Positions 16,702 to 64,000 of a stretch of 64,000 bases of DNA are shown one piece after another. Numbering within the stretch: the first letter of the stretch is position 1; every line of letters starts with the position of its first letter. The stretch comes from a virus, in IMG/VR virus record IMGVR_UViG_3300045902_000324, positions 33,463 through 97,462 of that record; one strand, written 5' to 3'. Position numbers and translations under genes: made by a program. The notes beneath the pieces were generated by a model. That model searched no databases, was not told the DNA's origin, and saw nothing but the letters and a program-made list of their open reading frames with translations.

Positions 16702-16703
16702 TT

Positions 16704-17458: not shown

Positions 17459-17475
17459 GTGGTGAGCGGAGCGGA

Positions 17476-17697
17476 CTACGGCAGATAATCCTCGATAATC
17501 TCCAGCAACTCCTCATAAAGCCCTGGTTGCCGGATCAAATTGACCAACACGCAGAAGTGTCTAACGTCCAGTGGACCTCGTTCAAAAGCGTTTTGAATGC
17601 GTCCCTGCCACTGGTTGGGGTACTCAAACATGCAACGAGCCGCCGCCGTAAAGGTGTCAAGTGCAGACGGGTCGTTGACGAGAGATTGAATAGACAA
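17476..17697 (-). pseudogene. Probable C-terminal fragment of the RuvC gene, separated by IS insertion
   Basis: Its TTG start lies at the IS left-end junction; deleting the IS joins it in frame to RuvC. Confidence 0.55.
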
Positions 17698-17776
17698 CGA
17701 AGTCGCGTGTGTCCCTACCCTCAGCGAAGCGGGGTAGGGCTGTAAGCGAGGCTGTGTAGCGGAGCGGAGCAGCCAA

Positions 17777-18184: not shown

Positions 18185-18218
18185 TGCAAATACCCCACCT
18201 GCAAGATATAATGCTCTT

Positions 18219-22906: not shown

Positions 22907-25900
22907 ATTTTTTGAGGATCAGAGGTTCGAGTTCTAGGACTGGAGCACCCACAATGTCCGGCTGAAAGAGAATCGCGTTGAGTCCATCCTGGAACCCTAC
23001 GATTACACCTGTCATGCCGACAGATGCGGAGAAACCCGTTTCAGCAATCTCATCCAGTATTTCTTTGGCTTCGTCTAGGTGCAACGCAGAGATATCAATC
23101 GCAGCGCGATCGCCAACGGTGAAACCATAGCCGGACTCGGATGTTTGGGTGCCCGTTCCTATATCGTCTTCTGTTTGATTCTGTATGTCAATGGTTTCAT
23201 CGCACAAAGGCGATTCTTCTACGGGCGAAACGTCCTCCACAGGTTCGGGCGGTGGTGCATCGGGTGGAGCGGGAACGTCTGTAGCGTTCTGGGCAAAATA
23301 GGTCACGATGCCGCGATCATTCTCTTCAATACGCCCGCGTCCAGACTCCTGAAGCTGTTTCAAGATGCTTAACGTCAAATCACCAACGGATACACCACTC
23401 TCCTTGGCCATGCGCTGGAGCGTGGATATCTTGCGGTAAATTTCCCGCATCGTTACGCCGCCAGCAAAACTCTCTGCGTACTCCTGGATTCGGAACGCCA
23501 GCGATGTCGGTTCACCGCTCTCGTCAGCCCGTGCCTGCATTAGCAGGTTTTGGCGCAGGTAATACTTGCACAGCAAAATCGATCGCTCTAGCGTGGGAAG
23601 CTGGAGCAGCAGGTTGTCCTTAGACGGGTCAGCCGCGCACTCCATGCAGTGCAGAACCAAAGCTAAGCGGCAGACGTATGCCTTCAACTTTGCGATGAAA
23701 TTTCTGATAGCTTGCCTCTTCTCACGGAACCTGAGTTCGGCAAGGACGTTGTGGAACTGCACCAGCCTTCTATCGCTCTCATCCGTCAGCCGTACATCCT
23801 GCTGTGGAAAGGATTCCAGACCGTTGAAAATTCTATTCAATACCTCGTGTAGTGCATCCTTCTTGTCCTGCCGATTCTCTTTGTAGTCACGGTATGCGAC
23901 CTCTGATTTTGGCGCAGCAATCAAAAATCGGGCCCGCTTACCATTGTCATCGTCGGGATCTTCAAATACCTTTTTGGCTACACCGGGCTGAAGCCCACCT
24001 GCCATCGACAGACGCGGGTTATGGATGGCGAACGTGCGATCTTCGTCCATCCGGTTGACGCTGATCTGATTCGCGTCCCACAGCCCCAGCATGACCTCTA
24101 CGTCATCCCCGCCGCGAGACTTGTACTGGCCAAGACCTCGGATAATTCCGGCGAACTCGTCCTTTGCCCACAAGGTGCCCGCGTTCTTTGGTTGCTGGGA
24201 TAGCCCTTTTAGGACGGATTCAATTTGAGCGATGTCAAACTTGTAATTCCTGCGCCTCGGCGCTGTGGGCACATCCCCGTCACCGTCCCCGTCTTCACCT
24301 TTCTTACGTTTGCGAGACGTTGCCTGGGCATACTCTTCACGCGCTCTTTCATATCTCTCGTCAGCGAGTTTCTGTCTATCCTTAATCGGCTGAAGCATCG
24401 CGGATTCTGCGCGGGACTTACCGCCGCCAGACTCCTCAATGATCAAAGCCCAGATTACGGCTGGCTCTTTCCAGTGGTTGTTGTCCGTTGCACCTTCCTG
24501 CACAATCAGGTTCGTTCTGCCACCGATCATGGATGCCGCCGATGGCAATAAATACTGAAGCAGCATTACTGGGCTTATGCCCATGCGCTTTGCACGGAAA
24601 TCCATCGACTCCGCCAAGTCGCTAGGAAGCACGTCCTTTAACTCAACGTGCTGGTCTGCATACTGATACAGCTTGGCGATCTCCGAGCTGTCCACGAACA
24701 TATCGCGGTCAACCTCTCGGAGGTCGCATCGCACCCGGTACATTTGCAAAAGCGTCTGCGGGTTTCTCGCAGAGCGTTCTGCGATATCCAGGACTTCCTT
24801 AATCGCCTGTCCCTCATTCAGGTGCCGTTTTACCAGCGCGTCAATGCACTGGCTAACTTCTTCGAGCGTGTGGATGCGGCGATCGCCCCCGCCATTCCCG
24901 TTACCGCCATTTCCGTTATCCCCGCCTCCGCTGCCGTTGCTCCCACCGCTACCGTTCCCATTGCCGTTTCCTCCGGCTACTGGAGTACCGTTGCGGCTGG
25001 GCGGATCATACGGCACTGTGGACGGCGCACTTAGCGACGTTCTTATGTCCGCCGGGCACTTTTCCTGAAATAATTCTGGAACGAGGTGTTTCACTTTTTT
25101 CCACGCGGCTTCTTCGCCGCCCCCAAAGGTACAGGCAGGGCTGGCGGAGTTCCACCTAGCCGATTTAGCAATTCTCGTGGCGCGACCTGCGTCCACACCC
25201 ATCCGCTCTCCAGCCGTCACCGTCAGTACAATCGGGTCGCCCGTTGTGGGTATCCCGTTCGCGCTACACCAGTTCATCCAAGAAATCCACTCGTTGGCGG
25301 CAGCCGTTAGCGTGGCGCTGCGGTCTGACTCTGTATCGACCCCATTCAAAATGTCCTTAGACTTCTGACTACCTAGCCGTTCCAGAGCGATCGCATTTGG
25401 TGCATCGGACTGTGTGACCACTCCGTCAAACACGGCTGCTGATTTATTTTCAGAACGCCTAGCGTATAGCCCAATACTATCAAGCGTCGGTACTTCAATC
25501 AGAACCCCGAAGTTCTGAACAGTTTCGTACGCTCGTCCGCTGGGTCCCATAGTCGGGGACATGGCGCAGAAGCGTCCAACGGGCATCGCTTCGCCAATAT
25601 GCTTGCCACCTGGCTCAAACGCAAAATTTGTGAACGCGGGCTTTTCTACCACAGCGACATAGACATGCCATCCGCCGCCCTGCGTCCGCTCTAACCACGC
25701 GCTTTTCAGGACGGGATACTTCTCAAGCCACTCACCGAAAACGCGATCGCTTTCTTCCTGACTATCAAAATTCTTTGCGTCCCAGTCAATCGGGACAAAG
25801 TGCCTGCCATCCGGCAGAACAAAACCCAGCGTGCCTACACCATTCTTCGAGTTAGCAAACCAGCGCTGGACTTCTCCTGCGGTAGGCACTTTGTTCTGGT

Positions 25901-46197: not shown

Positions 46198-47487
46198 CTA
46201 CGCAACGGGCTGAAGCCGCGTTGCTCCGCTTTTCCCTTGAGCTGTCACCCACAACTTAATGCGGGTGGGGGCAGTCAATGACCCCCTACCAACTCCGCTC
46301 AGACTAAATCCAAGCATCGTCGCTACTTTACGCAGGATGTTGGCAGCGCCATTACAATCCGCGTTGATGTACCAGTTCTGGGCAGTCCTGAACAAGCCTC
46401 GCTTCGTCCGCTTCCCCGATGACTTCCAGCTATCAGGTTTTTCACCGAATGTCGGCAAAAAGTCACCATCCACAAACGATGCTTGAGAGGTATAAGACTC
46501 CTCAGTTTCAACAAACTCTATCCCGTACTGCTCCGCCAGTTGAGCAATCCGCTCTTTTAGCCTTGCAGTTGGGATCTGCACAAACTTCTGATTGGTCTTC
46601 TTGCCCAGGTTGGAGCCGTCCTTTTGCCGCTGGTTCCAGCCAAATACAATCCGACCAATCCGGTTATCAATGCAATGGTCAATCACAATCCTAGCCGCTT
46701 TGTTCACTGCATCACGTATCTGCCGATTGCGCTTCTCAGTGAGTTGTGCAAGCCGCTTTGACCAAAAGCCTTGAGCCTTACCTTCTCTCAGTTTGGCAAT
46801 TTGCTTGTTGTACCAGCGGTTCAACGATTTGAGGTGGAGTCCATCCACAATGAAGCTGGTTCCCACGGTACTGACGCAGGTGAGCCAGTTATTTAATCCC
46901 GAATCGATGCCCAGCACCCGCATCGGGTCTACATCAGTCTGGATGGGGTTCAGTCGATAGACAAACTCAGTGTAGAAACACCCATTGCGCGGCAGAATCC
47001 GCAGTTCCTTGATGTCCTCAAATTTGAGATTGGAGGGCATGGGGACAGTGAACGAATCAATCTGAAACCATACTTTCACTAACTGCCCCAGCGGAACCCG
47101 GATCATCCCATCAATCAGCTTCAGCGCTTGTTTGGGATAGCTGACTACTGCCAACCCTCCCTTCTTGCGGTAATTTGGCATCCTGGGTTTCTCCGCCAGT
47201 TCTCCACCTCGCCACAGTTTCAACAATGCTCGGTAGGACTTAAACGACTCGTAGACCGAAATCAAGGTTTGCTGTGCAGCCTGGGAGTAAAGAGCTTGGA
47301 AGTGCTTACTGGTCTTGTATTCGTAACTCAGGCTGTGTTTGCCAATCCACTGCCCAGTCTTAAAGTGCAGTTGGCGAGCATAGTAGATGCCCTGATTGGT
47401 TAGCTTGTTTGCCTCAGAGCAGACAAAATCCATCACCCCCTTAAGTTCGTTATTGGGGTTGAGCAAAACTTGCTGACATCCAAACAT
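46198..47487 (-). CDS. tnpB: TnpB (IVFGWN/EESYTS subtype)
   Basis: GIDSGLNN, IVFGWN, EESYTS, NADCNGAANI. Confidence 0.93.
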   Translation of the reverse strand: MFGCQQVLLNPNNELKGVMDFVCSEANKLTNQGIYYARQLHFKTGQWIGKHSLSYEYKTSKHFQALYSQAAQQTLISVYESFKSYRALLKLWRGGELAEKPRMPNYRKKGGLAVVSYPKQALKLIDGMIRVPLGQLVKVWFQIDSFTVPMPSNLKFEDIKELRILPRNGCFYTEFVYRLNPIQTDVDPMRVLGIDSGLNNWLTCVSTVGTSFIVDGLHLKSLNRWYNKQIAKLREGKAQGFWSKRLAQLTEKRNRQIRDAVNKAARIVIDHCIDNRIGRIVFGWNQRQKDGSNLGKKTNQKFVQIPTARLKERIAQLAEQYGIEFVETEESYTSQASFVDGDFLPTFGEKPDSWKSSGKRTKRGLFRTAQNWYINADCNGAANILRKVATMLGFSLSGVGRGSLTAPTRIKLWVTAQGKSGATRLQPVA

Positions 47488-47544
47488 GGTGAGTTTATGC
47501 AACAATTGTCTACAGCATAGCCCAGATAGACAAACAGGTGAACT

Positions 47545-47940
47545 ATGGACTGCCAGAAAAGCCGCAGTGCAACGCATTTGCTGAACTATCACTTTGTCTG
47601 GATTCCTCGGCGACGCAGACCTGTTTTACGAGGAGAAATAGCAAATCGGTGCAGGCAGTTGATATGGGAAGCAGCAGAGGAGATTGATTGTCAAGTTGTG
47701 TCGTTGGCAATTGAGCCGGATCATGTCCACCTCTTTGTTAACTGCCCTCCAACAATTGCGCCCTATCAAATCATCCATCGAATTAAGGGGCGAACTGCAC
47801 GGTTCCTCAGACAGGAATTTCCTAATCCATTAATGAAACTGCCATCCATGTGGACATCCAGTTACTTTGTCTCAACGGCTGGCAATGTTAGCAGTGAAAC
47901 AATTCAGCGCTACATTGAAGCTCAGGGCAAGAGTAATTGA
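47545..47940 (+). CDS. tnpA: Y1 HUH transposase
   Basis: YHFVWIPRRR, PDHVHLF, WTSSYFVSTAG, YIEAQ. Confidence 0.95.
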   Translation: MDCQKSRSATHLLNYHFVWIPRRRRPVLRGEIANRCRQLIWEAAEEIDCQVVSLAIEPDHVHLFVNCPPTIAPYQIIHRIKGRTARFLRQEFPNPLMKLPSMWTSSYFVSTAGNVSSETIQRYIEAQGKSN

Positions 47941-50414: not shown

Positions 50415-51404
50415 TTAGAGTTCATCGTCAGCCAGGAAGCTCACATAGTCTGCAAACAACAATCGAAGCGCCTTCTCTTCGATCTGCCGGACTCTCTCTC
50501 GACTCATTCCCCAATCAGCCGCGATGTCGGCTTGCGTTTGCTCTAGAAAGAACCTGCGTTTCAGTACCTCACGCGCGTCTTTCTGCTCAAGCGTGTCGAT
50601 ACGCTGTTCCACATCTTCTGGGTCTTCGTGAATCTGGGCATCCAGGATAAATCTCATTTTCTGGACGACCCGGTTTCCTGGGCCTGCGTTTCGTCCGGCT
50701 AGTCCCAGCACTTTCCATGTCGGGAGCTTCGCCTTACTGAGTATGTCGTCTACTTCCAGTCCTTCGACTTGTAATCGACGGACAATAATATGGGGCGGCA
50801 CGCCGATTTCTGACGCCCACTCTGCGATCGTCTTCGTCACGCCATCTTTGGTCAAGGCGACGCCATACTTGCTGTGGGCAGCATCGAGCGATTGCTGGTG
50901 CTCGATCTCCACCTGCTGGAGCAGCCGAGCGACTTGGGCGGCAGACATGTCTGACGTAACTCTGTTGAGCGCTTTGCGGCGTACAGTTCTGCTGCGCGAG
51001 TAGGCAAGTCGCTTCTGACGACGGACTTCTAGCTCATCTTCACTGAGTTCTTTTTTACTTCTCTTCCTGTGTCCTTCATAGCGCAAGTCTGCGTCCTTCC
51101 GCGCATCGGCTTGAACGAAGTACAGGTAGCATGTGCCACACATGCTACTCGTTGTCACTTTGCGATCGCACGATTGCGGGAAACCCTCAAGTGCCCGGTC
51201 AAACATCCGCTCTCGATCCTCTTCCTTAAACCGCCGAATAAACGGCTGCTCCAGCACGTCCTTTCTGACGACCGGATCGTTCTTATCAAGACCTCCCTCT
51301 ACCAGGGTTTCAATCCGCTCTACCATCAATCGAATACGTGGGCAATCTGGAACCAGATCACCCGGACGAGCCTTAGTTACATCAATGTTGTGCGCTCTCG
51401 GCAT
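50415..51404 (-). CDS. DNA-binding protein with C-terminal sigma70 region-4 HTH
   Basis: TQADIAADWGMSRERVRQIEEKALRLL; GVTKTIAEWASEIG motif; no region 2 visible. Confidence 0.7.
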   Translation of the reverse strand: MPRAHNIDVTKARPGDLVPDCPRIRLMVERIETLVEGGLDKNDPVVRKDVLEQPFIRRFKEEDRERMFDRALEGFPQSCDRKVTTSSMCGTCYLYFVQADARKDADLRYEGHRKRSKKELSEDELEVRRQKRLAYSRSRTVRRKALNRVTSDMSAAQVARLLQQVEIEHQQSLDAAHSKYGVALTKDGVTKTIAEWASEIGVPPHIIVRRLQVEGLEVDDILSKAKLPTWKVLGLAGRNAGPGNRVVQKMRFILDAQIHEDPEDVEQRIDTLEQKDAREVLKRRFFLEQTQADIAADWGMSRERVRQIEEKALRLLFADYVSFLADDEL

Positions 51405-51470
51405 AGATATCCAAAAAATAAATGGGCAACGCTTTGTAGCTATTGCACAATCGTATTGCACTATAGTGAG

Positions 51471-53109: not shown

Positions 53110-53200
53110 AGTGGTAAGTAGGTGGTTCGATACCCAATATCGTAACTCTGTACATATTTTATGTCAATTGATTGGATCTGGGCACTATCCTCTTTTACCG

Positions 53201-53872
53201 ATGATCCAAGTCTTACCTGCCCAGCAAATATCCCCGTACCGTTTACAGCGGTATAGCGGCAACTCAAAAATCCACACGCCTAAGCAGATTGACCATATCT
53301 GTGGACTCATTACGGAGTTTGGGTTTACTGAACCGATTCATGTAAACGAGAATTACGAAATACTGGCCGGGCACGGTCGGCACATGGCAGCGCTTCAGCT
53401 CAAAATGGCGCTCGTCCCAATCATTCAGATCACGGGGCTAACCGAAAGCCAGCAGCAGACGTACCGTATCGCCCACAATCAGAGTCAACTCAGTACTGGC
53501 TTTGATTCGGACATACTAAAGTCCGAGGTACAAAGTCTGTGCTTCAAAGATTACGGCGTGGGGCTGCTTGGTCTGAGCGATCGCCAGCTCAAAGACTTAA
53601 AAATAACGGTGCCGGAACTACCGGATCTAGACAACCTGTCACTTGAGCCACTGCCCAAGGCACCAGTTGGAGGCAGAGTGTCGTCATCCAGGGTGTCGGC
53701 CCCATCCGCTTCGACCGCTCAGCCTGTTGTGGAGAGAACAGAGAGAATTATCCCCACTGCGGCGGCTATTGTGCCAGAAGCGAGGGAGTACATAGTCATG
53801 CGACTCAAATCCCACGACTGGGATAACGAAACGACAGCAGTCCTTCAGCAAATTGTCTCGCTTCTAGGCTAG
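53201..53872 (+). CDS. ParB N-terminal (ParB/Srx) domain protein
   Basis: NSKIH..QI..FGFTEPI..ILAGHGR..YRIAHN. Confidence 0.85.
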   Translation: MIQVLPAQQISPYRLQRYSGNSKIHTPKQIDHICGLITEFGFTEPIHVNENYEILAGHGRHMAALQLKMALVPIIQITGLTESQQQTYRIAHNQSQLSTGFDSDILKSEVQSLCFKDYGVGLLGLSDRQLKDLKITVPELPDLDNLSLEPLPKAPVGGRVSSSRVSAPSASTAQPVVERTERIIPTAAAIVPEAREYIVMRLKSHDWDNETTAVLQQIVSLLG

Positions 53873-54454
53873 ACATCCGTCAAGCGACTGCCGCAAATTC
53901 GCATGTATATCTTTCAATCGACGCGATACTGTGACCGGGCTACATCCCATATGGGTAGCAACCTGTTTGTATGTCCACCCCTGAAAATAAATCAGTTCTA
54001 CAATCTGCCGATCCCGTTCAGGCAACTCACCTACCGCTATTTCTACCGATCGGTGTGAATCCTGTATTTCCCTGTCTGGGAAGTCGATTGATCCGGACAG
54101 GGTATCGGTCGAATAGACAACTGTCCTCGCACCTTCACGGGGCGATCGCATTACGTCCATTCCGTCTCTGATAAAGTGGCGGATCTCCCCAGACAAGTGT
54201 TTATATACATAACTGGCAAACGGACACCCGTTATCGGGATCGAACACATCAATCAGGTCAAGCAACTTTAGAGATGCAATCTGATAGAAGTCGCCGTATC
54301 CGTACAAATTAGTCCGCTGTCCAACGCAGCACTGGGATGCAATTCTCTTAACCAGAGGGCTGTTTACCCAGGCAATCTCATTTCGGATATTCAGGTCTGA
54401 CCTTGTTGGCAAATAGGCACGAAACAATTCACGGTTCTTACGGGCGTAGTCCAT
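53864..54454 (-). CDS. Alternative sigma factor, SigF/SigB-like
   Basis: RNEIAWVNSPLVKRIA, DFYQIA..FDPDNGCPFASY..GEIRHFIRD; region 4 LPERDRQIV..VSRRL. Confidence 0.88.
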   Translation of the reverse strand: MDYARKNRELFRAYLPTRSDLNIRNEIAWVNSPLVKRIASQCCVGQRTNLYGYGDFYQIASLKLLDLIDVFDPDNGCPFASYVYKHLSGEIRHFIRDGMDVMRSPREGARTVVYSTDTLSGSIDFPDREIQDSHRSVEIAVGELPERDRQIVELIYFQGWTYKQVATHMGCSPVTVSRRLKDIHANLRQSLDGCLA

Positions 54455-54464
54455 TGGATGACCC

Positions 54465-54496
54465 AAAAAAGGAGTGTCCCGGACGCGGGACACTCC
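54465..54496 (-). terminator. Rho-independent terminator directly upstream of the sigma gene
   Basis: 10-bp stem GGAGTGTCCC/GGGACACTCC followed by T6 on the minus strand. Confidence 0.75.
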
Positions 54497-54518
54497 CATT
54501 TTGTCATAAGCGTAAACC

Positions 54519-54707
54519 TTAGTAGACCTGACCTTGACGAGTCATATCCCACTTCCCAATCACGCTCTCTAGCGTAACTCGAAGCATTTCAGCATCTCCT
54601 GTCTCTGCGCCTAACGCAGCAGCAACATCATTCACTAGGTTCTTCACTGAATCTTTAACTACGGCAGCCTGGGCCGCGTTTCGCCCTCCGCCTCTATTGC
54701 GTGCCAT
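54519..54707 (-). CDS. Small hypothetical protein, Arg/Gly-rich N-terminus
   Basis: GGAGG RBS, own promoter 54742-54770, own terminator. Confidence 0.75.
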   Translation of the reverse strand: MARNRGGGRNAAQAAVVKDSVKNLVNDVAAALGAETGDAEMLRVTLESVIGKWDMTRQGQVY

Positions 54708-54785
54708 TTATCCTCCAGATTGTGTTAGCCTTAAGTCTAACATCGTAAACCTGTTGCTTTGAAACGTCAACCTGCCAAAGTGATC

Positions 54786-55433
54786 ATGATCACTCAGCCC
54801 ACATATCTGCCGTGGCTGGGGTACTACAGCCGGGTGGCGCGGGCTGACCACCTAATCTACTTAGACGATGTGCAGTGGCGACCACGTTACTTCCAGCATC
54901 GAAACAAGATCAAAACGAAAGACGGAGAGCGCTGGCTGACCCTGCCTGTCGAGAAGCATCAGAGCAGGGCAATGCTCTGCGACGTGCAATTGGCTGATGC
55001 AGACTGGCAATCCGAACATCTGCGGCTCATCCATGATGCGTATCGGAGCAGTCCGTACTTGGATGAACTACCAACGCTTCCACAGCAGAGAAACTTGTGC
55101 GATCTGAACATAGAACTCGACACCTATCTGCTATGTCTATTCGGACTTGACATTCCACGCACGCTGTCTAGCAAAATGAGCACGCATGATGCAAACCCGT
55201 CGGCAAGGCTGGCGGCGCTCACTAAATGCGTAGGCGGCACCCACTACATCGCTGGCGTGGGCAGCAGAGATTACCTGGACGAGTTCGAGTTCACTCGCCG
55301 CGACATAACAGTGATCTGGGACGACTGGAAGCATCCGGTCTATCCACAGATGCATGGTGACTTTATCTCCGGGCTATCCGCAATCGACCTACTTCTTAAT
55401 TGCAATGAATCAGAACGAGCATCATACATTTAA
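54786..55433 (+). CDS. WbqC-like protein
   Basis: QPTYLPWLGYY..DDVQ..RNKI..LTLPV..YPQ..GLSAIDLLLN. Confidence 0.9.
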   Translation: MITQPTYLPWLGYYSRVARADHLIYLDDVQWRPRYFQHRNKIKTKDGERWLTLPVEKHQSRAMLCDVQLADADWQSEHLRLIHDAYRSSPYLDELPTLPQQRNLCDLNIELDTYLLCLFGLDIPRTLSSKMSTHDANPSARLAALTKCVGGTHYIAGVGSRDYLDEFEFTRRDITVIWDDWKHPVYPQMHGDFISGLSAIDLLLNCNESERASYI

Positions 55434-56049
55434 GCGAGTGCTGGCGGTGGTCGCCCACGGGGATGACGAGGTGATCGGCTGCGGCGGCACCCTGGCCACG
55501 CTGAGCGATCGCGGGTCTTCTGTAATCGCAGTGATCTGCACGGGGCGTGGTCTGGACGAGGAGACGGATGCAGCAGCCACCCGTCTTGGTATTGAGAGCA
55601 TGATTCTGCCAATCACAGTAGACATGAACCTGTACGGCTATGGTGTAGCACGACTGGCGGACACCATTCTGGAGCACATCAGAAGGATTCGCCCATCCTT
55701 GATCATCACGCATTCAAGACATGACGTTAACCAAGACCACCGGGCTGTACATGACGCGGTGCTGGTGGCTGCGCGACCGCCTACTACAGATGCCCAACTG
55801 TGGGCATTCCGTGGCGAGGGATCTGACTGGGGCTGCGGGTCGTTTGGCACGTTCACTCCAACTATCTTTTTCGACATATCCAACGTGCTATACCGCAAAA
55901 CACATGCTCTGTCCGCCTATGAGAGCCAGCTCAAGTCAGCCCCACACCCACGAGCGATCGATAACGTTCGGACGCAGGCTAGATACTGGGGGTCGATAGC
56001 GGGCGTTTCTGCCGCAGAACCATTCGAGCTATTGAGAGCAATCCATTGA
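55405..56049 (+). CDS. PIG-L/LmbE-family deacetylase
   Basis: VAHGDDEVIGCGGTL, TH..DVNQDH, AYESQ..HPR..AEPF. Confidence 0.9.
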   Translation: MNQNEHHTFKRVLAVVAHGDDEVIGCGGTLATLSDRGSSVIAVICTGRGLDEETDAAATRLGIESMILPITVDMNLYGYGVARLADTILEHIRRIRPSLIITHSRHDVNQDHRAVHDAVLVAARPPTTDAQLWAFRGEGSDWGCGSFGTFTPTIFFDISNVLYRKTHALSAYESQLKSAPHPRAIDNVRTQARYWGSIAGVSAAEPFELLRAIH

Positions 56050-56765
56050 AACTCGCCATCATGCAACCCTGCTACCTGCCGTGGCTGGGGTACTTTGACA
56101 AGATGAATCAAGCCGATATCGTAATCCATTACGACATATCTGCGTGGAGCAAGGGATCTATCTACAACCGAAACCGGATCAGAACTCGCACTGATCAAGG
56201 CTGGTCTTGGCTGACAGTGCCGACCCGTGCCAAGCTAGACACCATTCTCCACGCTGTGGAAATAGACCCCACCAAAACAAACTGGGCGATCAAGCACATC
56301 CGCCACATCGAGATGGAATATGCCAGGGCACCACATAAGACACTCCTCCAGCCCATCGCGTCAGCCCTACTATCTCGACAGTGGACATCTCTTTGCGATA
56401 TGAACATCGCCGCCATTGAAGCGATAGCAGGGCTGCTCATAGACAATCAGGCACCGATGCTCCGAGCCTCTGAGCTTGACATTCATTGGTCAAACGATCG
56501 CACCGAAAAACTGGTGCAAGTCTGCCAGCACATGGGCGCAGACACCTACGTTACTAGCGTGGGAGCTAGTGCTTTATATAATCTAGACGCATTCTCAACG
56601 GCAGGCATCAAGCTTGAGACACGTCAGCTTGGGCTGACTCATGCTCATCCGACATATCCACAGGTGCAGGGTGACTTCATGGAAAACATGTCGGCGCTGG
56701 ACATGCTGCTTCAGGTCGGTGCGGATAAGTCCTGCGAGTTGCTGGCGTCCATACCAGAAATTTGA
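56046..56765 (+). CDS. WbqC-like protein (second copy)
   Basis: AIMQPCYLPWLGYF..NRNRI..WLTVP..YPQ..MSALDML. Confidence 0.9.
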   Translation: MKLAIMQPCYLPWLGYFDKMNQADIVIHYDISAWSKGSIYNRNRIRTRTDQGWSWLTVPTRAKLDTILHAVEIDPTKTNWAIKHIRHIEMEYARAPHKTLLQPIASALLSRQWTSLCDMNIAAIEAIAGLLIDNQAPMLRASELDIHWSNDRTEKLVQVCQHMGADTYVTSVGASALYNLDAFSTAGIKLETRQLGLTHAHPTYPQVQGDFMENMSALDMLLQVGADKSCELLASIPEI

Positions 56766-57109
56766 ACCCGCTTGTCTGGGCACGCTTCTTCTCCCTTCCA
56801 GCCGTAGGGGTGGATGCCGCACACTAGGCGATCGCCACCATGTGGGTTGTTCGACCCTACATAGTCCTTGCAGCCAGCGCACGCCCACATTGGAGCTTGT
56901 TCAGGGCGTACTCGAACAACGACATGCCCAAGAATCTGAGGGAACCCACTATCATACGGACGCACAGGTAAACCAAGGGCATCCCAGAGCTGTTCAACAA
57001 AGCATTCGTCACAAGCTGTCTCGCATCCCTGGGAGCAGAAAGCCAAACAGTTATTCCTAACTTTGACAGACCGCGCAGCGATCGCTCTTAGTCGTTCCGA
57101 AATATCCAT
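56711..57109 (-). CDS. Cys-rich hypothetical protein
   Basis: CAGCKDY..LVCGIHPYGW..CPD; TAATG coupling with upstream gene. Confidence 0.6.
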   Translation of the reverse strand: MDISERLRAIAARSVKVRNNCLAFCSQGCETACDECFVEQLWDALGLPVRPYDSGFPQILGHVVVRVRPEQAPMWACAGCKDYVGSNNPHGGDRLVCGIHPYGWKGEEACPDKRVQISGMDASNSQDLSAPT

Positions 57110-58137
57110 TAAAACAACGTCTCCTGAATCGGCGGTCTATCCGCCATTTCTTTGCCAACCCAGTAGCCAGTCCAGATCTGGTGATACAGGTTTTGAGTGC
57201 TGTCCACAGCGCGATTTTCGATGCGGGATGCCTCCTCAATAAAGTGGATGACACTCCGCCCTTTAGCCCGGCCACGCGAGGTGTGCTGGTCTAGCGCATA
57301 GTCCGGGACTTCTAGTCTCGGCAATTCATCCGACGCCCGGAAAAAGCGATGCGCCCACTCCACAACATGCGTAGTTTGCTTGGATCGGCAGACCATCATC
57401 ACCGCCTGCGCCAGCGGCAGAAAGCAGTCCCCCTTTGTCTTGTCCTTGGCAACGAGCTGGGCGTTCGTCTCCTGGAGCGATCGCATCACGCTGTGGACAG
57501 TCGGATAATTCCCTAGATACGCAGACGCAAACAGGCGCAGTTCAAAGAACAGTAGCGACCACTCGCCCGCAACAGACCGTTTCCGAGCATCTGCTAACGC
57601 CTGCCACTCACATGTCGCCAGGTAATGCTGGAACGGCGTTAGTGGCATGTGCCCTTCCGCCATACCAACAAGCGGAGACGGAGGAGCCAGCGCTGATTCC
57701 GTTTCCCACGGATCGATAGACAGGGACAGCACATCGGCATCGCGAACCATAGAATCGATCTCAGTCGCGTTCTTCAAGGGAACTTCAGCAAACGTACAGC
57801 ACGCATCGCATACCTCACGGGACTTTTTGCTGCGACACAGCATCGACACTAAGTTCGTGTATGGATACATCAAAAATGTCAAGTCTTTGTTGCACTCCAC
57901 ACATAAAGTGTACAGCGCTTGAACTTCGTTTTGCACCCAAATGCTGGACAGTCCAATGTCCTCAACGGCGATAATTCGCATTCGCTTAAGCGCATACTCG
58001 CTGTAACCGGAAATTGCCATCTCGCGTGCCCAGTACAAAGCGTTGTACTCATTGCCGCGCCTGATTTCTTTTTGCAATGCAGATACAACCTCAGTGAGGA
58101 GATATCCGTTAGTCGTGCTAATGGGTCGATAGGGCAT
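57109..58137 (-). CDS. MgsA/RarA C-terminal-like helical protein lacking the AAA+ domain
   Basis: SALQKEIRRG..ALYWA..RIIAVEDIG; PDYALDQHT; ends QETLF. Confidence 0.7.
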   Translation of the reverse strand: MPYRPISTTNGYLLTEVVSALQKEIRRGNEYNALYWAREMAISGYSEYALKRMRIIAVEDIGLSSIWVQNEVQALYTLCVECNKDLTFLMYPYTNLVSMLCRSKKSREVCDACCTFAEVPLKNATEIDSMVRDADVLSLSIDPWETESALAPPSPLVGMAEGHMPLTPFQHYLATCEWQALADARKRSVAGEWSLLFFELRLFASAYLGNYPTVHSVMRSLQETNAQLVAKDKTKGDCFLPLAQAVMMVCRSKQTTHVVEWAHRFFRASDELPRLEVPDYALDQHTSRGRAKGRSVIHFIEEASRIENRAVDSTQNLYHQIWTGYWVGKEMADRPPIQETLF

Positions 58138-58233
58138 GTGGAATCAGTGATAAGTGATTCGTATATCGTAACTTTTAAGCATTCTTGCAGTCAAGCGTAT
58201 TAGACTAGGATACGAGAAATTCATTGGAAACCT

Positions 58234-59139
58234 ATGCGCGTATTGATTACAGGCGGCTCCGGCTTCATCGGGTCAAATCTAAATCGGTTCTTTACAGACA
58301 GAGGGCACCAAGTCTATTCGATGGATGTGTTACGGGAGGACGATAACTTCACCACGCTCATTGGGGACGTTCGGAATTACTGCCGTGTCACAGAACTGGT
58401 GGCAGACGCGGATCTCGTACTGCACTGCGCGTCCCCCGTAGGGGTGGTGAACGTCACCTACAACCCGATGCGAACTGCGGATGTCATCGTCACGGGTACA
58501 GTGAACGTGACCAAGGCGTGCGTGATTCACGGGGTACGCCTGATCAACTTTTCCACATCCGAGGTCTACGGCGATCTTGGGCGGGCTGCTTGCGAAACGG
58601 ACAACTGTATTCTCCGCACCGACTCCCCTCGCTGGGTTTACGCCAGCGCCAAACTAACGGCTGAACACGTCGCTCAGTCTTGGGATCGTTCGACCACAGT
58701 TCGCCTGTTTAACGCAGCGGGGCCTGGTCAGGCGCAGGACATGGTTATCCCGCGCTTTATAACGGCGGCAAGGGCAGGCGATCCTCTACAGCTTTACGGC
58801 GGAGGCGGGCAAACTCGATGCTTTACCCACATACAGGACGTGTGCGAGGCGATCTATCGTCTCGCTGATACCGACGCCTCGTGTGGTCATGTGGTCAACG
58901 TGGGCAACCCTATGAACTCTACGACAATGATGAAGCTGGCAAAGCTCATTATTCAAAAGACGGGTGCCAGCTTGGATCAGCTTTACTACGCGCTCGGTAG
59001 AGAAGAGGGTGATATAGCGTTTCGAGAACCGAATATCGGAAAACTAAGGCGGCTGACCGGATGGCAGCCGCCTACGTCATTAGACCAGATTCTCACTGAC
59101 GCTGTGGACAGTGCGCGATCGCTCAGTCGGGCAAGCTAG
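58234..59139 (+). CDS. NAD-dependent sugar epimerase/dehydratase
   Basis: GGSGFIG, STSEVYG, YASAK, RLFNAAGP. Confidence 0.92.
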   Translation: MRVLITGGSGFIGSNLNRFFTDRGHQVYSMDVLREDDNFTTLIGDVRNYCRVTELVADADLVLHCASPVGVVNVTYNPMRTADVIVTGTVNVTKACVIHGVRLINFSTSEVYGDLGRAACETDNCILRTDSPRWVYASAKLTAEHVAQSWDRSTTVRLFNAAGPGQAQDMVIPRFITAARAGDPLQLYGGGGQTRCFTHIQDVCEAIYRLADTDASCGHVVNVGNPMNSTTMMKLAKLIIQKTGASLDQLYYALGREEGDIAFREPNIGKLRRLTGWQPPTSLDQILTDAVDSARSLSRAS

Positions 59140-59287
59140 TGAACGTGCAGCCTGGGGGCGGCGTCTGCGGATAGGGCGGGCACTGCTCTGAGGCTACACC
59201 GGGCTGGACAAGAGCGCTCAATACGGTCAAGAAGAACACAAAACTCCTCGTCAGGGCGATTGCGGTAGCCACTAAATTGTTTACCAT
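59123..59287 (-). CDS. Putative secreted 54-aa peptide (not in ORF track)
   Basis: MVNNLVATAIALTRSFVFFLTVLSALVQPGVASEQCPPYPQTPPPGCTFTSLPD; AGAGG upstream. Confidence 0.4.
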   Translation of the reverse strand: MVNNLVATAIALTRSFVFFLTVLSALVQPGVASEQCPPYPQTPPPGCTFTSLPD

Positions 59288-59372
59288 GAACAAACCTCTC
59301 TATGGGGTATCGCCTGGGTTTCTGTCAAAAATCGCCCAGGCGGTTTACTCGGACTACAAAACTAGTCGATAA

Positions 59373-59519
59373 TCAACAGAACAATCGACGGAACACCTCA
59401 CCTGCGATCGCCAACATTTCTACTGCAACCCATCCCCAGCCGCCAATTCTGCGCTCGTGGTCAGCTATTCTTTCGTTCGCAACCTGTAGAGCGATCGCCC
59501 GTATCTCGTCTGGGGTCAT
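59373..59519 (-). CDS. Small hypothetical protein
   Basis: GGAGG RBS; ATGA overlap with the nblA stop. Confidence 0.5.
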   Translation of the reverse strand: MTPDEIRAIALQVANERIADHERRIGGWGWVAVEMLAIAGEVFRRLFC

Positions 59520-59698
59520 GTGCCTCCTCCAAGCTTCTGACGCAACAACGCCTTGCACGTGGCATCCTTAATCATCATCTGTTCGTACAGTTTCACTAAG
59601 AAGTGTTGAGCCTGCTCACGGCTCATGCCCTGGACAGTGGATTCAAACGACCGCAAACTGAATTGTTGCTCTAACGTAAGTTCTATTTTTCCGCTCAT
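59516..59698 (-). CDS. nblA: Phycobilisome degradation protein NblA
   Basis: LTLEQQFSLRSFESTVQGMSREQAQHFLVKLYEQMM signature. Confidence 0.93.
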   Translation of the reverse strand: MSGKIELTLEQQFSLRSFESTVQGMSREQAQHFLVKLYEQMMIKDATCKALLRQKLGGGT

Positions 59699-59979
59699 CA
59701 AAAATCCTCCGAATCACATCCAACACCGGAGCCAATCAACAATCGAAAGTACCCAGCCGCGATACTTTCATCGAAATCACCAAACTCAGGCGGCACTGCT
59801 CCATACTTAGCGGGCGATCGCATTAGTCCACAGCTCCAGCGATCGCCATCGTCTTCGAGGCACGGACACTGTGGATGCTTACCAAACAATTCGAGGCTTA
59901 CGGAACACTGCTCGGCTAGGCAACAGAGTCCACAACCGTTGCAAGGCAATCCGTGTTCTGGTTTAGAGGGTTTCTGCAA
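59698..59979 (-). CDS. Cys-rich Fe-S/Zn-binding small protein
   Basis: PCNGCGLCC..C..CPCL..CGL..GCD. Confidence 0.65.
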   Translation of the reverse strand: MQKPSKPEHGLPCNGCGLCCLAEQCSVSLELFGKHPQCPCLEDDGDRWSCGLMRSPAKYGAVPPEFGDFDESIAAGYFRLLIGSGVGCDSEDF

Positions 59980-60217
59980 TTTTCTTCAGTGCCATAGTAA
60001 GCACCATGATTGTCTGGTCTTCAAGTTTTCTGAACCAAAGGATCGATTCTCGGCTCAAAGCCGTGTTGAAATTTGTACACAGATCGTCTGGTGCCATTCG
60101 AAGATCGACTGGTGTCTGAATCCAATCGACAAGAACGCCAATCATTAGGACTTTTTGATACGACGTGTCTCCTAGGGCATTAGGTTCTACTGCTGTGGAC
60201 GCGGTTGAAACAGTCAT
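59963..60217 (-). CDS. Hypothetical protein
   Basis: First gene behind promoter 60244-60272. Confidence 0.55.
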   Translation of the reverse strand: MTVSTASTAVEPNALGDTSYQKVLMIGVLVDWIQTPVDLRMAPDDLCTNFNTALSRESILWFRKLEDQTIMVLTMALKKIAETL

Positions 60218-60285
60218 GGGTAATTAAGTGATTCGTTTCGTATATCGTAACTTTGATGCTCTATTAGGTCAAGTATCCCAGCAAT

Positions 60286-60321
60286 AAAAAAGGACTGACC
60301 AGAAAACCCCCCGTCAGTCCC
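60286..60321 (-). terminator. Rho-independent terminator
   Basis: GGACTGAC..GTCAGTCC stem followed by T6 on the minus strand, downstream of the dehydrogenase. Confidence 0.55.
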
Positions 60322-60371
60322 TTCACTTTTCACCTGAGTTCATCGTTACACGCTGGTTTAGCTATGTCAAC

Positions 60372-61622
60372 CTACAAACTCCAATATTGCAATCGATCTG
60401 GTGCAATATCTTGGAAGTGCCCTTCCACATCTGCGAATAGCGTGCCATCTGGTACATGCTCCAGGATGGTCGGAAGCTGCGACCGGAAAACAGAGTGGGC
60501 ACACAGGACGACTACTGCGGTCAGTCCGTGCGCGATGTTTAGTATGGAAGCTAGGTCTAATGGATAGAAACCGTTTTCCTGCAATGCATCTGGGCACACC
60601 ACTGGGTCATACAAATAACATTTCTCAATCGACGATGCGATCGCCAGCGCCATGCTGTTGCGCGTATCCCGCACGTTCGGCTTGAACGCGGCACCTAAAC
60701 ACAAAACATTGCCTCCGACGGCTGATACTTCGTCCCTCACCCTCTCGACAATGTAGTCAGCCATCCCATCGTTGCGGCTGCGTGCAGCTTCTACAACGAG
60801 TGGCTGGTCGGGCATGACCTTACGCGCCCAGTCCACAAAGAAAAGCGGGTCTACCGCGATGCAATGCCCCCCAACTAGCCCAGGGTAGAACGAGGCAAAA
60901 TTCCATTTTGTACCGCAAGCATCAAGAACATTCTGCATGTCCACGTCACTGCCGCAAGCGATAGAAAACTCGTTCATTAAAGCAATATTTACGTCTCTCT
61001 GAGCGTTCTCCAGCAGCTTGCACGCCTCCGCCTCCTTAATCGAGCACATGTGGACAGTCGGAGCCACAGATCTGTACAGATCACCAGCCCGTTTCTGGGC
61101 AGACGGGGTGTTCGCGCCGACAACCTTCGTCACCGTGGCAAGTGTGTGCATCATATCGCCTGGATTTACTCGCTCAGGCGAGTATGCCACATCGAAATCA
61201 TTGTGCCTAGCCGTAGAAATTACAGCGAAAACGCAAACGTCCTCTGTCACTCCGGGGTATACGGTGCTTTCCCAGATCACTAACCCACCCCGTGGAACGT
61301 GGCGACCCACAAGTGCTGACGCAGCAACCAACATGCTCAGATCAGGGTTCCGGTCATGATCGACTGGCGTTGGCACACAAACGATGAACACATTGCATCC
61401 ACCCAGGTCTGCTTCATCTGAAGTGATCACCATATCAATCTGTTGCGCTGATTGGAGAGCAGCCCCAGACACCTCCCCGTTTTTGTCATATCCAGACTTC
61501 AGCGCCAATACCCTATCGACGTTGGTATCATACCCAACAACAGTATTGCCCCCATCAAACAGGGCGATCGCCAGAGGCAACCCCACGTAACCCAACCCGA
61601 TAACTGCGATTTTTTCAGCCAT
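60372..61622 (-). CDS. UDP-N-acetylhexosamine 6-dehydrogenase (WbpO/TviB/WecC family)
   Basis: GLGYVG, CVPTP, ESTVYPG, SPERVNPG, KLLENAQRDVNIA, GGHCIAVDP, FKPN..DTRNS. Confidence 0.93.
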   Translation of the reverse strand: MAEKIAVIGLGYVGLPLAIALFDGGNTVVGYDTNVDRVLALKSGYDKNGEVSGAALQSAQQIDMVITSDEADLGGCNVFIVCVPTPVDHDRNPDLSMLVAASALVGRHVPRGGLVIWESTVYPGVTEDVCVFAVISTARHNDFDVAYSPERVNPGDMMHTLATVTKVVGANTPSAQKRAGDLYRSVAPTVHMCSIKEAEACKLLENAQRDVNIALMNEFSIACGSDVDMQNVLDACGTKWNFASFYPGLVGGHCIAVDPLFFVDWARKVMPDQPLVVEAARSRNDGMADYIVERVRDEVSAVGGNVLCLGAAFKPNVRDTRNSMALAIASSIEKCYLYDPVVCPDALQENGFYPLDLASILNIAHGLTAVVVLCAHSVFRSQLPTILEHVPDGTLFADVEGHFQDIAPDRLQYWSL

Positions 61623-61675
61623 GCCTGCTAATATCGAAATGTCCTTTATTCATTTTGTCATCTAAAAGTACAACT

Positions 61676-62320
61676 ATGGAACTATCCGATATCGAATCGT
61701 ATTACTCCAATCTATTCAATGAGCACGGCCCGAGTCATCTCGCCATTTCTTGGAAAGAAGATCGATCTAGTACAACCATGTACCAAGTCATGGCTGAAGA
61801 AGGAGGCAGCGACGCTATACAGGACAAGAAAATCTTGGACTTTGGTTGCGGATATGGTGGCTTTCTTGGGTTTCTGCTGGAACACTTGATTATTCCACGC
61901 CAGTACACCGGGGTCGAAATCGTACCAGAGTTCATCGAATACGCCAGCAACAAATACGCCATCAACAAATATCCGTTTGAGTTCATGCGACAGCATGAAG
62001 TTTCCAATGACAGAACATTCGATCATGTGTTCATTAACGGAGTGTTCCCGCTGCGACGCGGCTCCGATGAGGAGAGCAGGCTTACGTGGCAGAACACAGT
62101 GCGGTGGTGCCTAGAGCGATCGCCCGCAGTGTCGTTCGATTTCTTCTCCGTTGCGTCGGACTTCAGAAACCCAGATCGCTACTACGAACACCCTGGCATA
62201 GTGTGGGACTTCCTCAAGTCAATCGATGCACATGGACTCGTCAACATCAGGAACAACTATTTGATGTCTGACGCTCACAAGTGCCCATTCAGTTTTACTG
62301 TGACGTTCAAATCCTCATAG
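61676..62320 (+). CDS. Class I SAM-dependent methyltransferase
   Basis: ILDFGCGYG, YTGVEI, FDHVFINGVF. Confidence 0.88.
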   Translation: MELSDIESYYSNLFNEHGPSHLAISWKEDRSSTTMYQVMAEEGGSDAIQDKKILDFGCGYGGFLGFLLEHLIIPRQYTGVEIVPEFIEYASNKYAINKYPFEFMRQHEVSNDRTFDHVFINGVFPLRRGSDEESRLTWQNTVRWCLERSPAVSFDFFSVASDFRNPDRYYEHPGIVWDFLKSIDAHGLVNIRNNYLMSDAHKCPFSFTVTFKSS

Positions 62321-63085
62321 CGGAATCGAAATCTGTATCTGGTAGTCGTGCTTCGCTTTAGCCCGCATAGCACCAACCTTCTGCGAGACGATGCGGGGGC
62401 CAAACAGATCCCGCATTAACTCAAATTCAAACTTAAGCTGACTCAGGTTCCGGTAATTGGCGTTACCCTCAGTGCCAGTAGCGGTTTCATTCGCCTCGAT
62501 TGCAAACCTATCATCCATAAAGGCTGTCCGGTGATGGTAGGCGTTGAGACAGCTTATCCAGAAATCCAGGTAGCACTTGATCTTTGGGTTGAACTTCAAC
62601 TTAGACCCGGACAAGATTCCCATGCCACAGAAATACATCCGTCCGGTTAGCCGAAACGGTCGCTGACCCCCATAACTCAGCGGGTTGCTGGTCGATGCAC
62701 CAGCCCCATACAAGAACGCGCCCATGTCGTGGCACATGTCCGCCCAGTGCTGTACCAGAGGTTCTGCGAGTTCTGGATCACATTCGCGTGCAGCCTTTTT
62801 TGTCTCAAAGCACCGAGTTATGCCTGTCACATCATCATCCAGAAAAAACACATCTCCACCGAGCAGATCTAGCACCCATTGTGCTTTTCTGCTTAGTCCG
62901 CCATCTACTCCGGTTTCAACCTCGTCCGGGTGTGCCAGGATCTCCACGCCAGGATTGTAGTGTCGGTATACGTCTGCCTGTGATTCTGCCACGCATAGCA
63001 CAGCATTCTTGAATGTACGCAATGTAGTGACGCGATCGGCACGCCCTCGACTCAAAATAACGGTTGTCTGCTTAGCTGCACCCAT
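62315..63085 (-). CDS. GREB1/TET-associated (TAGT)-like glycosyltransferase
   Basis: ILSRGRA..T..VAESQ..Y, FFLDDD, late D and GN motifs; coupled (TGATG) to a ParB-N gene. Confidence 0.72.
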   Translation of the reverse strand: MGAAKQTTVILSRGRADRVTTLRTFKNAVLCVAESQADVYRHYNPGVEILAHPDEVETGVDGGLSRKAQWVLDLLGGDVFFLDDDVTGITRCFETKKAARECDPELAEPLVQHWADMCHDMGAFLYGAGASTSNPLSYGGQRPFRLTGRMYFCGMGILSGSKLKFNPKIKCYLDFWISCLNAYHHRTAFMDDRFAIEANETATGTEGNANYRNLSQLKFEFELMRDLFGPRIVSQKVGAMRAKAKHDYQIQISIPL

Positions 63086-63717
63086 CAGAAACTAATCTCT
63101 CCGATTTCCTGTTCCGCCATTTCGCTGCGGCTGTTCCACATATCTGTGAAACGGGCAACGGTCAAAACCCTTCCGGTGCCGACCATCTTGTTCGCTTGAA
63201 ACCCACGCTCACGTCTAAGCTGTAGCACCGTGGTCAGAAACGCCCAGTCTGTCTCGTTGTCCGAGATGATCAGCACATAATCGTGCTTCTCTCCGAACCT
63301 GGGCACAATCGGAAAACTCGGCTCATCTGAAACTTCCTTGGATAACTTGTTCTCCAGCGCGACGATTGCTGTGGGCGCAAAGCCGGGCGGAATATCCGAA
63401 CACTTTTTCAGCCCAGCCAACAGCCGATCATCATCCCACACAGCATTTCTGCCGATCTGATTGTCTGATAGCGCCCGCTCCACAGCCGTCGTATCGTCGT
63501 CTTCTACGAACGTTACGTCGATAGTATCCCAGCCCAGCTTGCGTGCAGCCATCACCATGTGGTTGCCAATTAACACCTTCATGCTGCTGCGTTGTACGAC
63601 AGCGGGGCGGTGCTGCCCAAATTTCTGAAGCGACTGCACGATCTCCGCTACTTTACCTTTGTTTGCATTGTCTGGGTCTAGTACCAGGGTATCGAGGGCG
63701 ATCGACTCTACTTCCAC
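63085..63717 (-). CDS. ParB N-terminal domain protein
   Basis: DPDNAN..SLQKFGQHRP..IGNH..ALSDN..WD; acidic HDYVLII..DW C-terminal domain. Confidence 0.85.
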   Translation of the reverse strand: MEVESIALDTLVLDPDNANKGKVAEIVQSLQKFGQHRPAVVQRSSMKVLIGNHMVMAARKLGWDTIDVTFVEDDDTTAVERALSDNQIGRNAVWDDDRLLAGLKKCSDIPPGFAPTAIVALENKLSKEVSDEPSFPIVPRFGEKHDYVLIISDNETDWAFLTTVLQLRRERGFQANKMVGTGRVLTVARFTDMWNSRSEMAEQEIGEISF

Positions 63718-63735: not shown

Positions 63736-64000
63736 TCAGCGAACAGTACCCAGCCCAGTCCGTGTTGTCCACAGCGGCCGCAGCAAATTCCATTCCCACC
63801 AAAGATCTATAGATTTGCTGCACACCCCGTCATCACGCAAGATGCGTATCGACGAGCCATTGTCGAACCGGACAATATCTCTACTGAGGCTCGATATCTT
63901 TAACCTAGAATTTTGTCGAATTGTCCATGTTGCCAAATCGTAGCGTCTGTCTATCCACAGCCCTTGAGTATCGGGCACCCGTAGCACCGAATCGAGCTGT
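63736..64000 (-). CDS. Partial hypothetical protein (runs off the window)
   Basis: Frame is open to the window edge. Confidence 0.4.
   Translation of the reverse strand, partial: QLDSVLRVPDTQGLWIDRRYDLATWTIRQNSRLKISSLSRDIVRFDNGSSIRILRDDGVCSKSIDLWWEWNLLRPLWTTRTGLGTVR

Follow-up and report, generated by a model that had tools for sequence, protein, structure and literature searches.

The 64,000-nucleotide stretch analysed here (the window) covers positions 33,463-97,462 of IMG/VR virus record IMGVR_UViG_3300045902_000324, that is, the last 64 kb of this 97,462-bp contig. Between window positions 53201 and 63717 it carries a cluster of about eleven soluble enzymes that would make an unusual amino sugar, tailor it and pass it to a DNA-type sugar transferase paired with a ParB-like protein. 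An earlier annotation of the cluster (the original prediction) had proposed that an amino-uronic sugar is attached to DNA or else to virion or pilin proteins. In our analysis, the phage's own DNA is the most likely acceptor, a reading that we consider evenly balanced. We favor it because the glycosyltransferase belongs to a family that acts on DNA, because the partners conserved with it belong to families that handle DNA, because ParB-dependent phage DNA-modifying enzymes provide a direct precedent, and because nothing in the cluster is membrane-bound.

The glycosyltransferase scored 58.1 bits against the TAGT family (PF20691; curated Pfam cut-off 27.5), the only Pfam family that it matched. 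Its only match in PHROGs was phrog_842, the T2/T6 beta-glucosyl-hydroxymethylcytosine (HMC) alpha-glucosyltransferase, over the full length of the protein (E 7.3e-13). The original prediction had proposed a profile comparison of the gene at 62315-63085. With hhalign, this gene aligned with T6 ggt over 185 columns at an E value of 2.5e-5; the DDD motif was in register, FFLDDDV facing WMIDDDT. Residues D83-D85 were invariant within the TAGT clade in our seven-sequence glycosyltransferase alignment. The T6 enzyme has itself been placed in the TAGT Pfam family (PMC13390438), and the phage protein matched no lipopolysaccharide (LPS) glycosyltransferase family. Its assignment to a DNA glycosyltransferase family is thus upheld. 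The N-terminal 31 residues, left out of the database gene call, contain invariant positions; therefore, the correct form of the enzyme is the 256-amino acid (aa) protein coupled to ParB-N. The resemblance to the T2/T6 alpha-glucosyltransferases lies in the shared family and catalytic core, whereas identity is only about 22%. Moreover, the T6 enzyme adds a second glucose onto the glucosyl-HMC made by dCMP hydroxymethylase and an alpha-glucosyltransferase, and has no ParB partner.

Using the seven-sequence alignment, 137 related loci were retrieved (80 viral and 57 cellular), and their gene content was determined by hidden Markov model (HMM) searches. A ParB-N gene of the same family as ParB-N protein B of the window was present in 133 of the 137. 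Of the 88 loci whose flank was long enough, 81 had a gene resembling the RarA/MgsA C-terminal domain (MgsA_C) at most 8 kb downstream of TAGT and in the same orientation. A conserved ParB-N/TAGT/RarA-C core is well supported. WbqC was found in only 8 of 87 loci, and WbqC and PIG-L are optional additions to the core. The common compact form reads [PIG-L][WbqC][ParB-N][TAGT][MgsA_C-like], then terS/terL, so that in relatives the module lies just upstream of the terminase genes. Its carriers are mostly Cytophagales prophages of roughly 40 kb, and module-bearing culturable hosts include Arundinibacter, Runella, Spirosoma and Hymenobacter; Arundinibacter roseus DMA-K-7a alone has five copies. An exhaustive profile search returned 1,522 representatives of the TAGT family at E<=1e-3. 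In the window, ParB-N B and TAGT share a TGATG overlap indicating translational coupling; this overlap and the pairing in related loci both bear out the link that had been drawn between the two genes.

The genes of the cluster and the promoter-like motif found in the same region are as follows (ORF, open reading frame; SDR, short-chain dehydrogenase/reductase; SAM, S-adenosylmethionine; HexNAc, N-acetylhexosamine).

53201-53872, plus strand: ParB-N protein A (Pfam ParB_N E 1.7e-3; phrog_620 E 8.9e-35)
53864-54499, minus strand: SigF/SigB-type sigma factor (Sigma70_r2 and r4; NCBIfam SigF subfamily E 2.9e-28)
54759-55433, plus strand: WbqC copy 1 (PF08889 E 5.6e-57)
55438-56049, plus strand (ORF from 55354): PIG-L/LmbE-family de-N-acetylase (PF02585 E 9.6e-20)
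56046-56765, plus strand: WbqC copy 2 (PF08889 E 1.4e-53)
56711-57109, minus strand: 132-aa ORF of unknown function (no Pfam family; coupled to the RarA/MgsA-C-like gene)
57109-58137, minus strand: RarA/MgsA C-terminal-like helical protein (PF12002 E 7.3e-9)
58234-59139, plus strand: extended SDR, UDP-uronate decarboxylase-like (Pfam epimerase E 1.4e-43; UXS1/ArnA matches in the PDB)
60372-61622, minus strand: UDP-HexNAc 6-dehydrogenase (TIGR03026 306 bits; TviB 262 bits)
61655-62320, plus strand: class I SAM-dependent methyltransferase (Methyltransf_12/25/11)
62315-63085, minus strand: TAGT-family glycosyltransferase (PF20691 58.1 bits; phrog_842 E 7.3e-13)
63085-63717, minus strand: ParB-N protein B (Pfam ParB_N E 1.7e-4; phrog_8071 E 1.4e-24)
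53139-53167, 54742-54770, 58165-58194 and 60244-60272, minus strand: four copies of the motif TTGAC-N17-19-TACGAT

Every gene named in the original prediction was recovered in its place with Pfam, PHROGs and NCBIfam. The label of epimerase was not retained for the SDR, which is decarboxylase-like, and the list had left out the gene at 57109-58137, the 132-aa ORF, the SigF-like factor and several small ORFs. ParB-N A most likely starts at ATG 53201, since the longer ORF from 53027 runs into a promoter and the neighboring gene. The true start of WbqC copy 1 is probably 54780 or 54786. PIG-L likely starts at GTG 55438, 4 nt past the WbqC copy 1 stop; its own stop overlaps the WbqC copy 2 start (TTGA), and the RarA-C-like gene stop overlaps the 132-aa ORF start (TAATG). 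Whether the SigF-like factor belongs to the pathway is uncertain. No membrane-type hydrophobic segment was detected in the cluster proteins, except for a buried stretch inside the dehydrogenase domain. Likewise, no Pfam match to a flippase, polymerase, initiating transferase, ABC exporter or membrane glycosyltransferase family was found in the cluster. The cluster proteins are soluble, and the earlier remark that flippase, polymerase and membrane glycosyltransferase are lacking holds.

The two ParB-N proteins scored below the Pfam cut-off, yet strongly in PHROGs. Both are short and contain only the ParB/Srx N-terminal domain, without a helix-turn-helix (HTH); in protein B (210 aa), ParB_N was the only domain matched. 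Protein A is 32-37% identical to the ParB-N genes found directly upstream of TAGT in four of the related loci (L074, L076, L077 and L083). In the TAGT-linked ParB-N family, an Asn and a G-x-x-R box (read as GHQR, GNQR or GHGR) are conserved; a variable linker then leads to a C-terminal block that is again conserved (PIVPkFsEKYD...SYK). The box reads GHGR in protein A and GNHM in protein B, where the family Arg is lost. Neither protein displays the hallmarks of a partition ParB, namely the GERR arginine box and the parS-binding HTH_ParB domain. A separate 369-aa ParB is encoded at contig 1336-2445; it scores above the ParB_N cut-off, and its homologue in locus L084, a prophage, carries HTH_ParB. 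Fusions of ParB-N domains with phage DNA methyltransferases (phrog_498) and with DUF4417 (phrog_940) occur as well. According to PMC13229309, the ParB-like regulators that phage T-dioxygenases require combine a nucleotide-binding domain with a C-terminal domain across an unstructured segment and are devoid of a DNA-binding domain; glycosyltransferases are the genes that most often accompany these short proteins. The architecture of ParB-N B, compared with this description only, fits it.

The gene at 57109-58137 encodes a stand-alone RarA/MgsA C-terminal-like protein and is the third core member of the module. Two conserved segments (residues 1-116 and 200-320) flank a phage-specific insertion (about residues 109-190); homologues have a median length of about 204 aa. 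The AlphaFold2 (AF2) model was all-helical (pLDDT 70.5), confident in the conserved parts and poor across the insertion, with residues 109-164 below 50. Foldseek ranked crystal structures of MgsA/RarA C-terminal fragments first (2r9g, 3ctd and 3pvs), although weakly (E values of 6e-3 and above). MgsA_C was the only domain matched, and no AAA+ module was found in the protein. Two other identities were considered and rejected. A hidden enzyme such as a dioxygenase is at odds with an all-helical model matching MgsA C-terminal fragments only, and a small terminase with the separate HTH protein that relatives encode between the RarA-C-like gene and terL. The coupled 132-aa ORF had no relatives among the 137 TAGT loci and did not match the genes located after the RarA-C-like gene in other loci, so that it was not retained as their homologue.

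The dehydrogenase is closest to TviB, a UDP-N-acetylglucosamine (UDP-GlcNAc) 6-dehydrogenase. Indeed, it scored 262 bits with the NCBIfam TviB model and 195 bits with that of UDP-ManNAc dehydrogenase, versus at most 115 bits with UDP-Glc dehydrogenase. In the PDB, it matched UDP-ManNAcA dehydrogenase 4r16 (162 bits) and Cap5O (136 bits). Among PDB structures, the SDR scored highest with human UXS1 (124 bits), then with ArnA (104 bits), versus 67-80 bits for UDP-GlcA 4-epimerases. It retains STSEVYGD, identical to UXS1, the YxxxK motif and an Arg aligned with UXS1 KRKPDI, and thus appears nearer to UDP-glucuronate decarboxylases than to epimerases. Because the UXS/ArnA residues are retained in the SDR, the route that we favor from the sequence would lead from UDP-GlcNAc through UDP-GlcNAcA to a pentose of the UDP-XylNAc type. 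The amino sugar of the original prediction is therefore kept, whereas its uronic acid gives way to a decarboxylated product of the XylNAc type as the more likely outcome; the SDR may still act as a 4-epimerase yielding a uronic acid. The methyltransferase gave only weak, non-specific NCBIfam and PDB matches.

A UDP-GlcNAc dehydrogenase/UDP-XylNAc synthase pair from Bacillus cereus is a comparable system. By enzyme type, the window also contains all the elements of the route proposed for UDP-N-methylxylosamine in incednine biosynthesis, in which IdnS2 is the dehydrogenase, IdnS3 the UDP-XylNAc synthase, IdnS1 the deacetylase and IdnS5 the N-methyltransferase (PMC11284099). It differs in that the sugar would be passed to a phage TAGT and that two WbqC ligases are added.

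Among the loci compared, the window cluster has the richest sugar branch, and both its dehydrogenase and its methyltransferase are missing from all 137 others. Among cellular sequences, the cluster is most closely related to locus L084, a prophage in the cyanobacterium Stenomitos frigidus. Its module (15118-19595) keeps WbqC and PIG-L and encodes a 4,6-dehydratase (Polysacc_synt_2), a DegT aminotransferase and a different, MTS-type methyltransferase. These enzymes would produce a different sugar, of the 4-amino-4,6-dideoxy type, on the shared core. The sugar branch is thus swappable between loci.

The best NCBIfam match of PIG-L was BshB1, and its PDB matches were diacetylchitobiose deacetylase and BshB. 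WbqC has no sequence-level relative in the PDB, and no characterized member was found in the searchable literature. The AF2 model of WbqC copy 1 (pLDDT 92.9) displayed a Rossmann fold like that of class I aminoacyl-tRNA synthetases (aaRS). Its best structural match in the PDB was BshC (4wbd), with a Z score of 13.7 and an rmsd of 3.4 Å over 216 of 224 residues, followed by class I LysRS (Z 12.0), other class I synthetases and then MshC (Z 7.2). Foldseek alone gave weak matches of the same fold class. From this model, WbqC is a putative BshC-like amino-acid:amino-sugar ligase. The two copies are only 29% identical, which suggests that they perform different ligation steps. In the bacterial tRNA-ProX/ProRSx operon, WbqC accompanies an LmbE deacetylase and a GT4 glycosyltransferase. 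The sequence of N-deacetylation and then aminoacylation put forward in the original prediction is plausible in view of the BshB-like PIG-L and the match of the WbqC model to BshC.

The same succession of GlcNAc transfer, LmbE/PIG-L deacetylation and amino-acid ligation by a class-I-aaRS-like enzyme is found in the bacillithiol (BshA-BshB-BshC) and mycothiol (MshA-MshB-MshC) pathways. In contrast to these, the glycosyltransferase of the window is a TAGT and not a GT4, there are two ligases, and WbqC is a minimal domain of 224 aa. Moreover, the acceptor is probably a macromolecule and there is no sign of a thiol product.

If DNA is the target, the pathway could operate as follows. The TviB-like dehydrogenase would oxidize UDP-GlcNAc at C6, and the UXS/ArnA-like SDR would probably decarboxylate the product to a UDP-XylNAc-type sugar. 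TAGT would then transfer the sugar, aided by the short HTH-less ParB-N as proposed for the ParB-dependent phage T-dioxygenases; its conserved linkage suggests that the RarA-C-like helical partner works with TAGT. By analogy with BshA/B/C, MshA/B/C and IdnS1/2/3/5, PIG-L would strip the N-acetyl group from the sugar, the two WbqC ligases would load the exposed amine with one or two amino acids or comparable acyl groups, and the SAM methyltransferase would cap the product.

Phage glycosyltransferases are known to attach hexuronic and other sugars to DNA, often with a partner nucleotide-sugar enzyme. The closest published systems are the 5mYOX-ParB-GT clusters (PMC8256090; 10.1101/2023.12.21.572611; PMC13229309). 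In the available text of these reports, such clusters comprise a 5mYOX (TET/JBP) enzyme with or without a C5-methyltransferase, a ParB-like regulator, a glycosyltransferase and nucleotide-sugar enzymes. From the same text, they resemble the module described here in the phage glycosyltransferase beside a short ParB without DNA-binding domain, in the partner nucleotide-sugar enzymes and in their frequent position beside terminase; uronic and HexNAc sugars are reported on DNA. They differ in two respects. No 5mYOX, C5-methyltransferase or ThyA-type enzyme was found in the window cluster or in the related virus records searched, and the window adds a RarA-C-like core partner, PIG-L, a BshC-like WbqC and a UXS-like decarboxylase, which do not appear in the portions of the published descriptions covered here.

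Several points weigh against a DNA target. The main objection is that no enzyme making a hydroxylated acceptor base was found. The original prediction had implied that this enzyme lies outside the window; this was not borne out, as neither a six-frame search of the whole 97-kb contig nor hmmscan run directly on about 110 ORFs yielded TET/JBP (PF12851) or ThyA (PF00303). A TET/JBP search of 55 related virus records (21 with a completeness of 90% or more) was equally negative but found no positive control, and ThyA was missing from the 5 such records searched for it. In the Stenomitos genome, TET/JBP was not found by a genome-wide search that likewise had no positive control. None was detected in 201 cyanobacterial genomes or in 14 control genomes, and this failure of the genome-wide search to detect any positive control is itself a second objection. 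According to O'Toole et al. (PMC13229309), some phage 5mYOX enzymes are missed by the Pfam model. Altogether, the absence of an acceptor-base enzyme looks like a property of the TAGT clade and not a gap in the data. Furthermore, ParB-N B is without the conserved Arg of its family. Finally, two analogies would point elsewhere: the combination of glycosyltransferase, deacetylase and ligase is most familiar from the synthesis of small molecules (bacillithiol, mycothiol), and GREB1, a eukaryotic relative of TAGT, O-GlcNAcylates a protein, as far as the available text of PMC7968844 goes.

A DNA target might also do without a hydroxymethyl-pyrimidine. In this tentative variant, the ParB-N/TAGT/RarA-C core would suffice by itself: TAGT, loaded by ParB, would glycosylate a canonical base or another DNA position directly, through an acceptor chemistry so far undescribed and with a de-acetylated, aminoacylated and methylated 2-amino-pentose as the sugar.

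Among the readings that place the sugar elsewhere, we consider protein glycosylation unlikely, although it survives best. TAGT would decorate a capsid, tail or packaging protein, ParB or the RarA-C-like partner, and the other enzymes would tailor the glycan. This would agree with the activity of GREB1, with the missing acceptor-base enzyme and with the position of the module next to packaging and structural genes in relatives. In the phage studied here, however, the cluster adjoins replication genes and not structural genes. The conserved ParB-N and RarA-C-like partners come from DNA-handling families, ParB-N domains occur fused to DNA methyltransferases in phrog_498, and T6 ggt, the only experimentally characterized TAGT member cited, acts on DNA.

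The product could also be a small molecule, a soluble aminoacyl-amino-sugar conjugate used, for example, for host redox or signaling manipulation or as an anti-defense metabolite. We judge this improbable and rank it behind a protein target. All the enzymes are soluble, the association of a glycosyltransferase, PIG-L and a BshC-like ligase follows the BshA/B/C and MshA/B/C logic, and WbqC and LmbE accompany a GT4 in the tRNA-ProX operon. On the other hand, the glycosyltransferase here is a TAGT and not a GT4, nothing obvious would tie its near-obligate ParB-N and RarA-C-like partners to such a synthesis, and the core works without the rare WbqC and PIG-L.

A pre-replicative form of DNA modification appears more doubtful still. 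In this case, a ThyX homologue or a host enzyme would supply a modified pyrimidine nucleotide, the base of which would then be glycosylated by TAGT, as in a classical two-step hypermodification whose first enzyme has escaped recognition. The contig does encode a ThyX (20833-21576, plus strand), and the Stenomitos prophage has a counterpart with 51% identity (L084, 12609-13427), located 2 kb from its module. However, L084 was the only one of the 137 loci with ThyX, the five related virus records that were searched over their full length were without it, and the sequence resembles an ordinary thymidylate synthase. ThyX-type thymidylate synthases are common in cyanophages, and we know of no ThyX-type hydroxymethylase.

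The DUF4417 protein of the contig (9443-10231, plus strand) was considered as a second glycosyltransferase or as the acceptor-base enzyme, and was rejected on both counts: it displayed no similarity to TAGT and had no relative in the PDB. Nor is it part of the module, being absent from all 137 TAGT loci. It is a stand-alone protein, whereas in other phages the domain is fused to ParB-N (phrog_940). Its Atlas matches were to DUF4417 and ParB-DUF4417 fusion clusters only, one of them labeled 'ParB protein' and 100% viral.

Least probable is host-surface conversion by a moron from an O-antigen or exopolysaccharide locus altering the host envelope glycan: O-antigen and capsule loci typically contain WbqC, a TviB-like dehydrogenase and an SDR, and the phage encodes the c-di-GMP domains GGDEF and EAL, but the cluster is without flippase, polymerase, initiating transferase or membrane protein, and its glycosyltransferase matches no LPS family and is coupled to ParB-N.

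The host of the phage is almost certainly a cyanobacterium, since the octamer GCGATCGC is in large excess in the window (57 copies observed versus 1.8 expected) and the cluster has its closest cellular relative in the Stenomitos frigidus prophage. This octamer is a palindrome that we take to be the cyanobacterial HIP1 repeat, and its abundance points to a HIP1-rich cyanobacterial host and a long phage-host co-evolution. No close phage relatives were found among 50,697 GenBank phages, either for the region by megablast or for TAGT by tblastn. The contig contains no tRNA gene that might feed an aminoacyl-tRNA-dependent step, and no Rfam match was obtained in the cluster region.

CheckV estimated the completeness of the contig at 84%. 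At its ends, a minus-strand frame of 216 aa stays open across the head-to-tail join (contig 3-386 and window 63736-64000), and the record may be a complete circular or permuted genome. Neither half of this frame had phage homologues. On a circular map, the cluster would lie ~10-13 kb upstream of DUF4417, terS and terL and would have the 369-aa ParB as its neighbor, an arrangement also seen in the Stenomitos prophage. Elsewhere in the window, an IS200/IS605 element (Y1 transposase and TnpB/Cas12f-like protein; 46198-47940) and a second, solitary TnpB-like gene (18219-19472) lie within the phage replication region.

The contig contains 17 copies of the promoter-like motif TTGAC-N17-19-TACGAT, all of them on the minus strand; 11 fall within the window, versus 0.04 expected there. 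Its copies span window 26809-60272 and contig 7820-24033. Those at 54742-54770 and 58165-58194 precede the SigF-like and RarA-C-like genes, respectively, and others lie upstream of dnaN, helicase genes and other replication and non-structural genes. That the RarA-C-like gene has this motif in common with replication genes speaks for a DNA target. A second sigma-factor-like gene, with region 4 only, was noted at window 50415-51461. The plus-strand operons of the cluster are without the minus-strand motif and could depend on the two phage sigma-like genes.

If DNA is indeed the target, this module would define a widespread class of phage DNA hypermodification, represented about 1,500 times (E<=1e-3) among Cytophagales, cyanobacterial and other prophages, and one that operates without any known base-preparing enzyme. 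It would also place amino-acid-bearing amino sugars on DNA, a chemistry not reported in the portions of the phage DNA-modification literature covered here. Such a modification would be relevant to restriction and CRISPR evasion, to the reading of modified metagenomic DNA and to the development of DNA-labeling enzyme tools. Whatever the acceptor, the module provides testable functions for two uncharacterized families: WbqC, as a BshC-like ligase, and the stand-alone RarA-C-like protein, as a partner of ParB and the glycosyltransferase.

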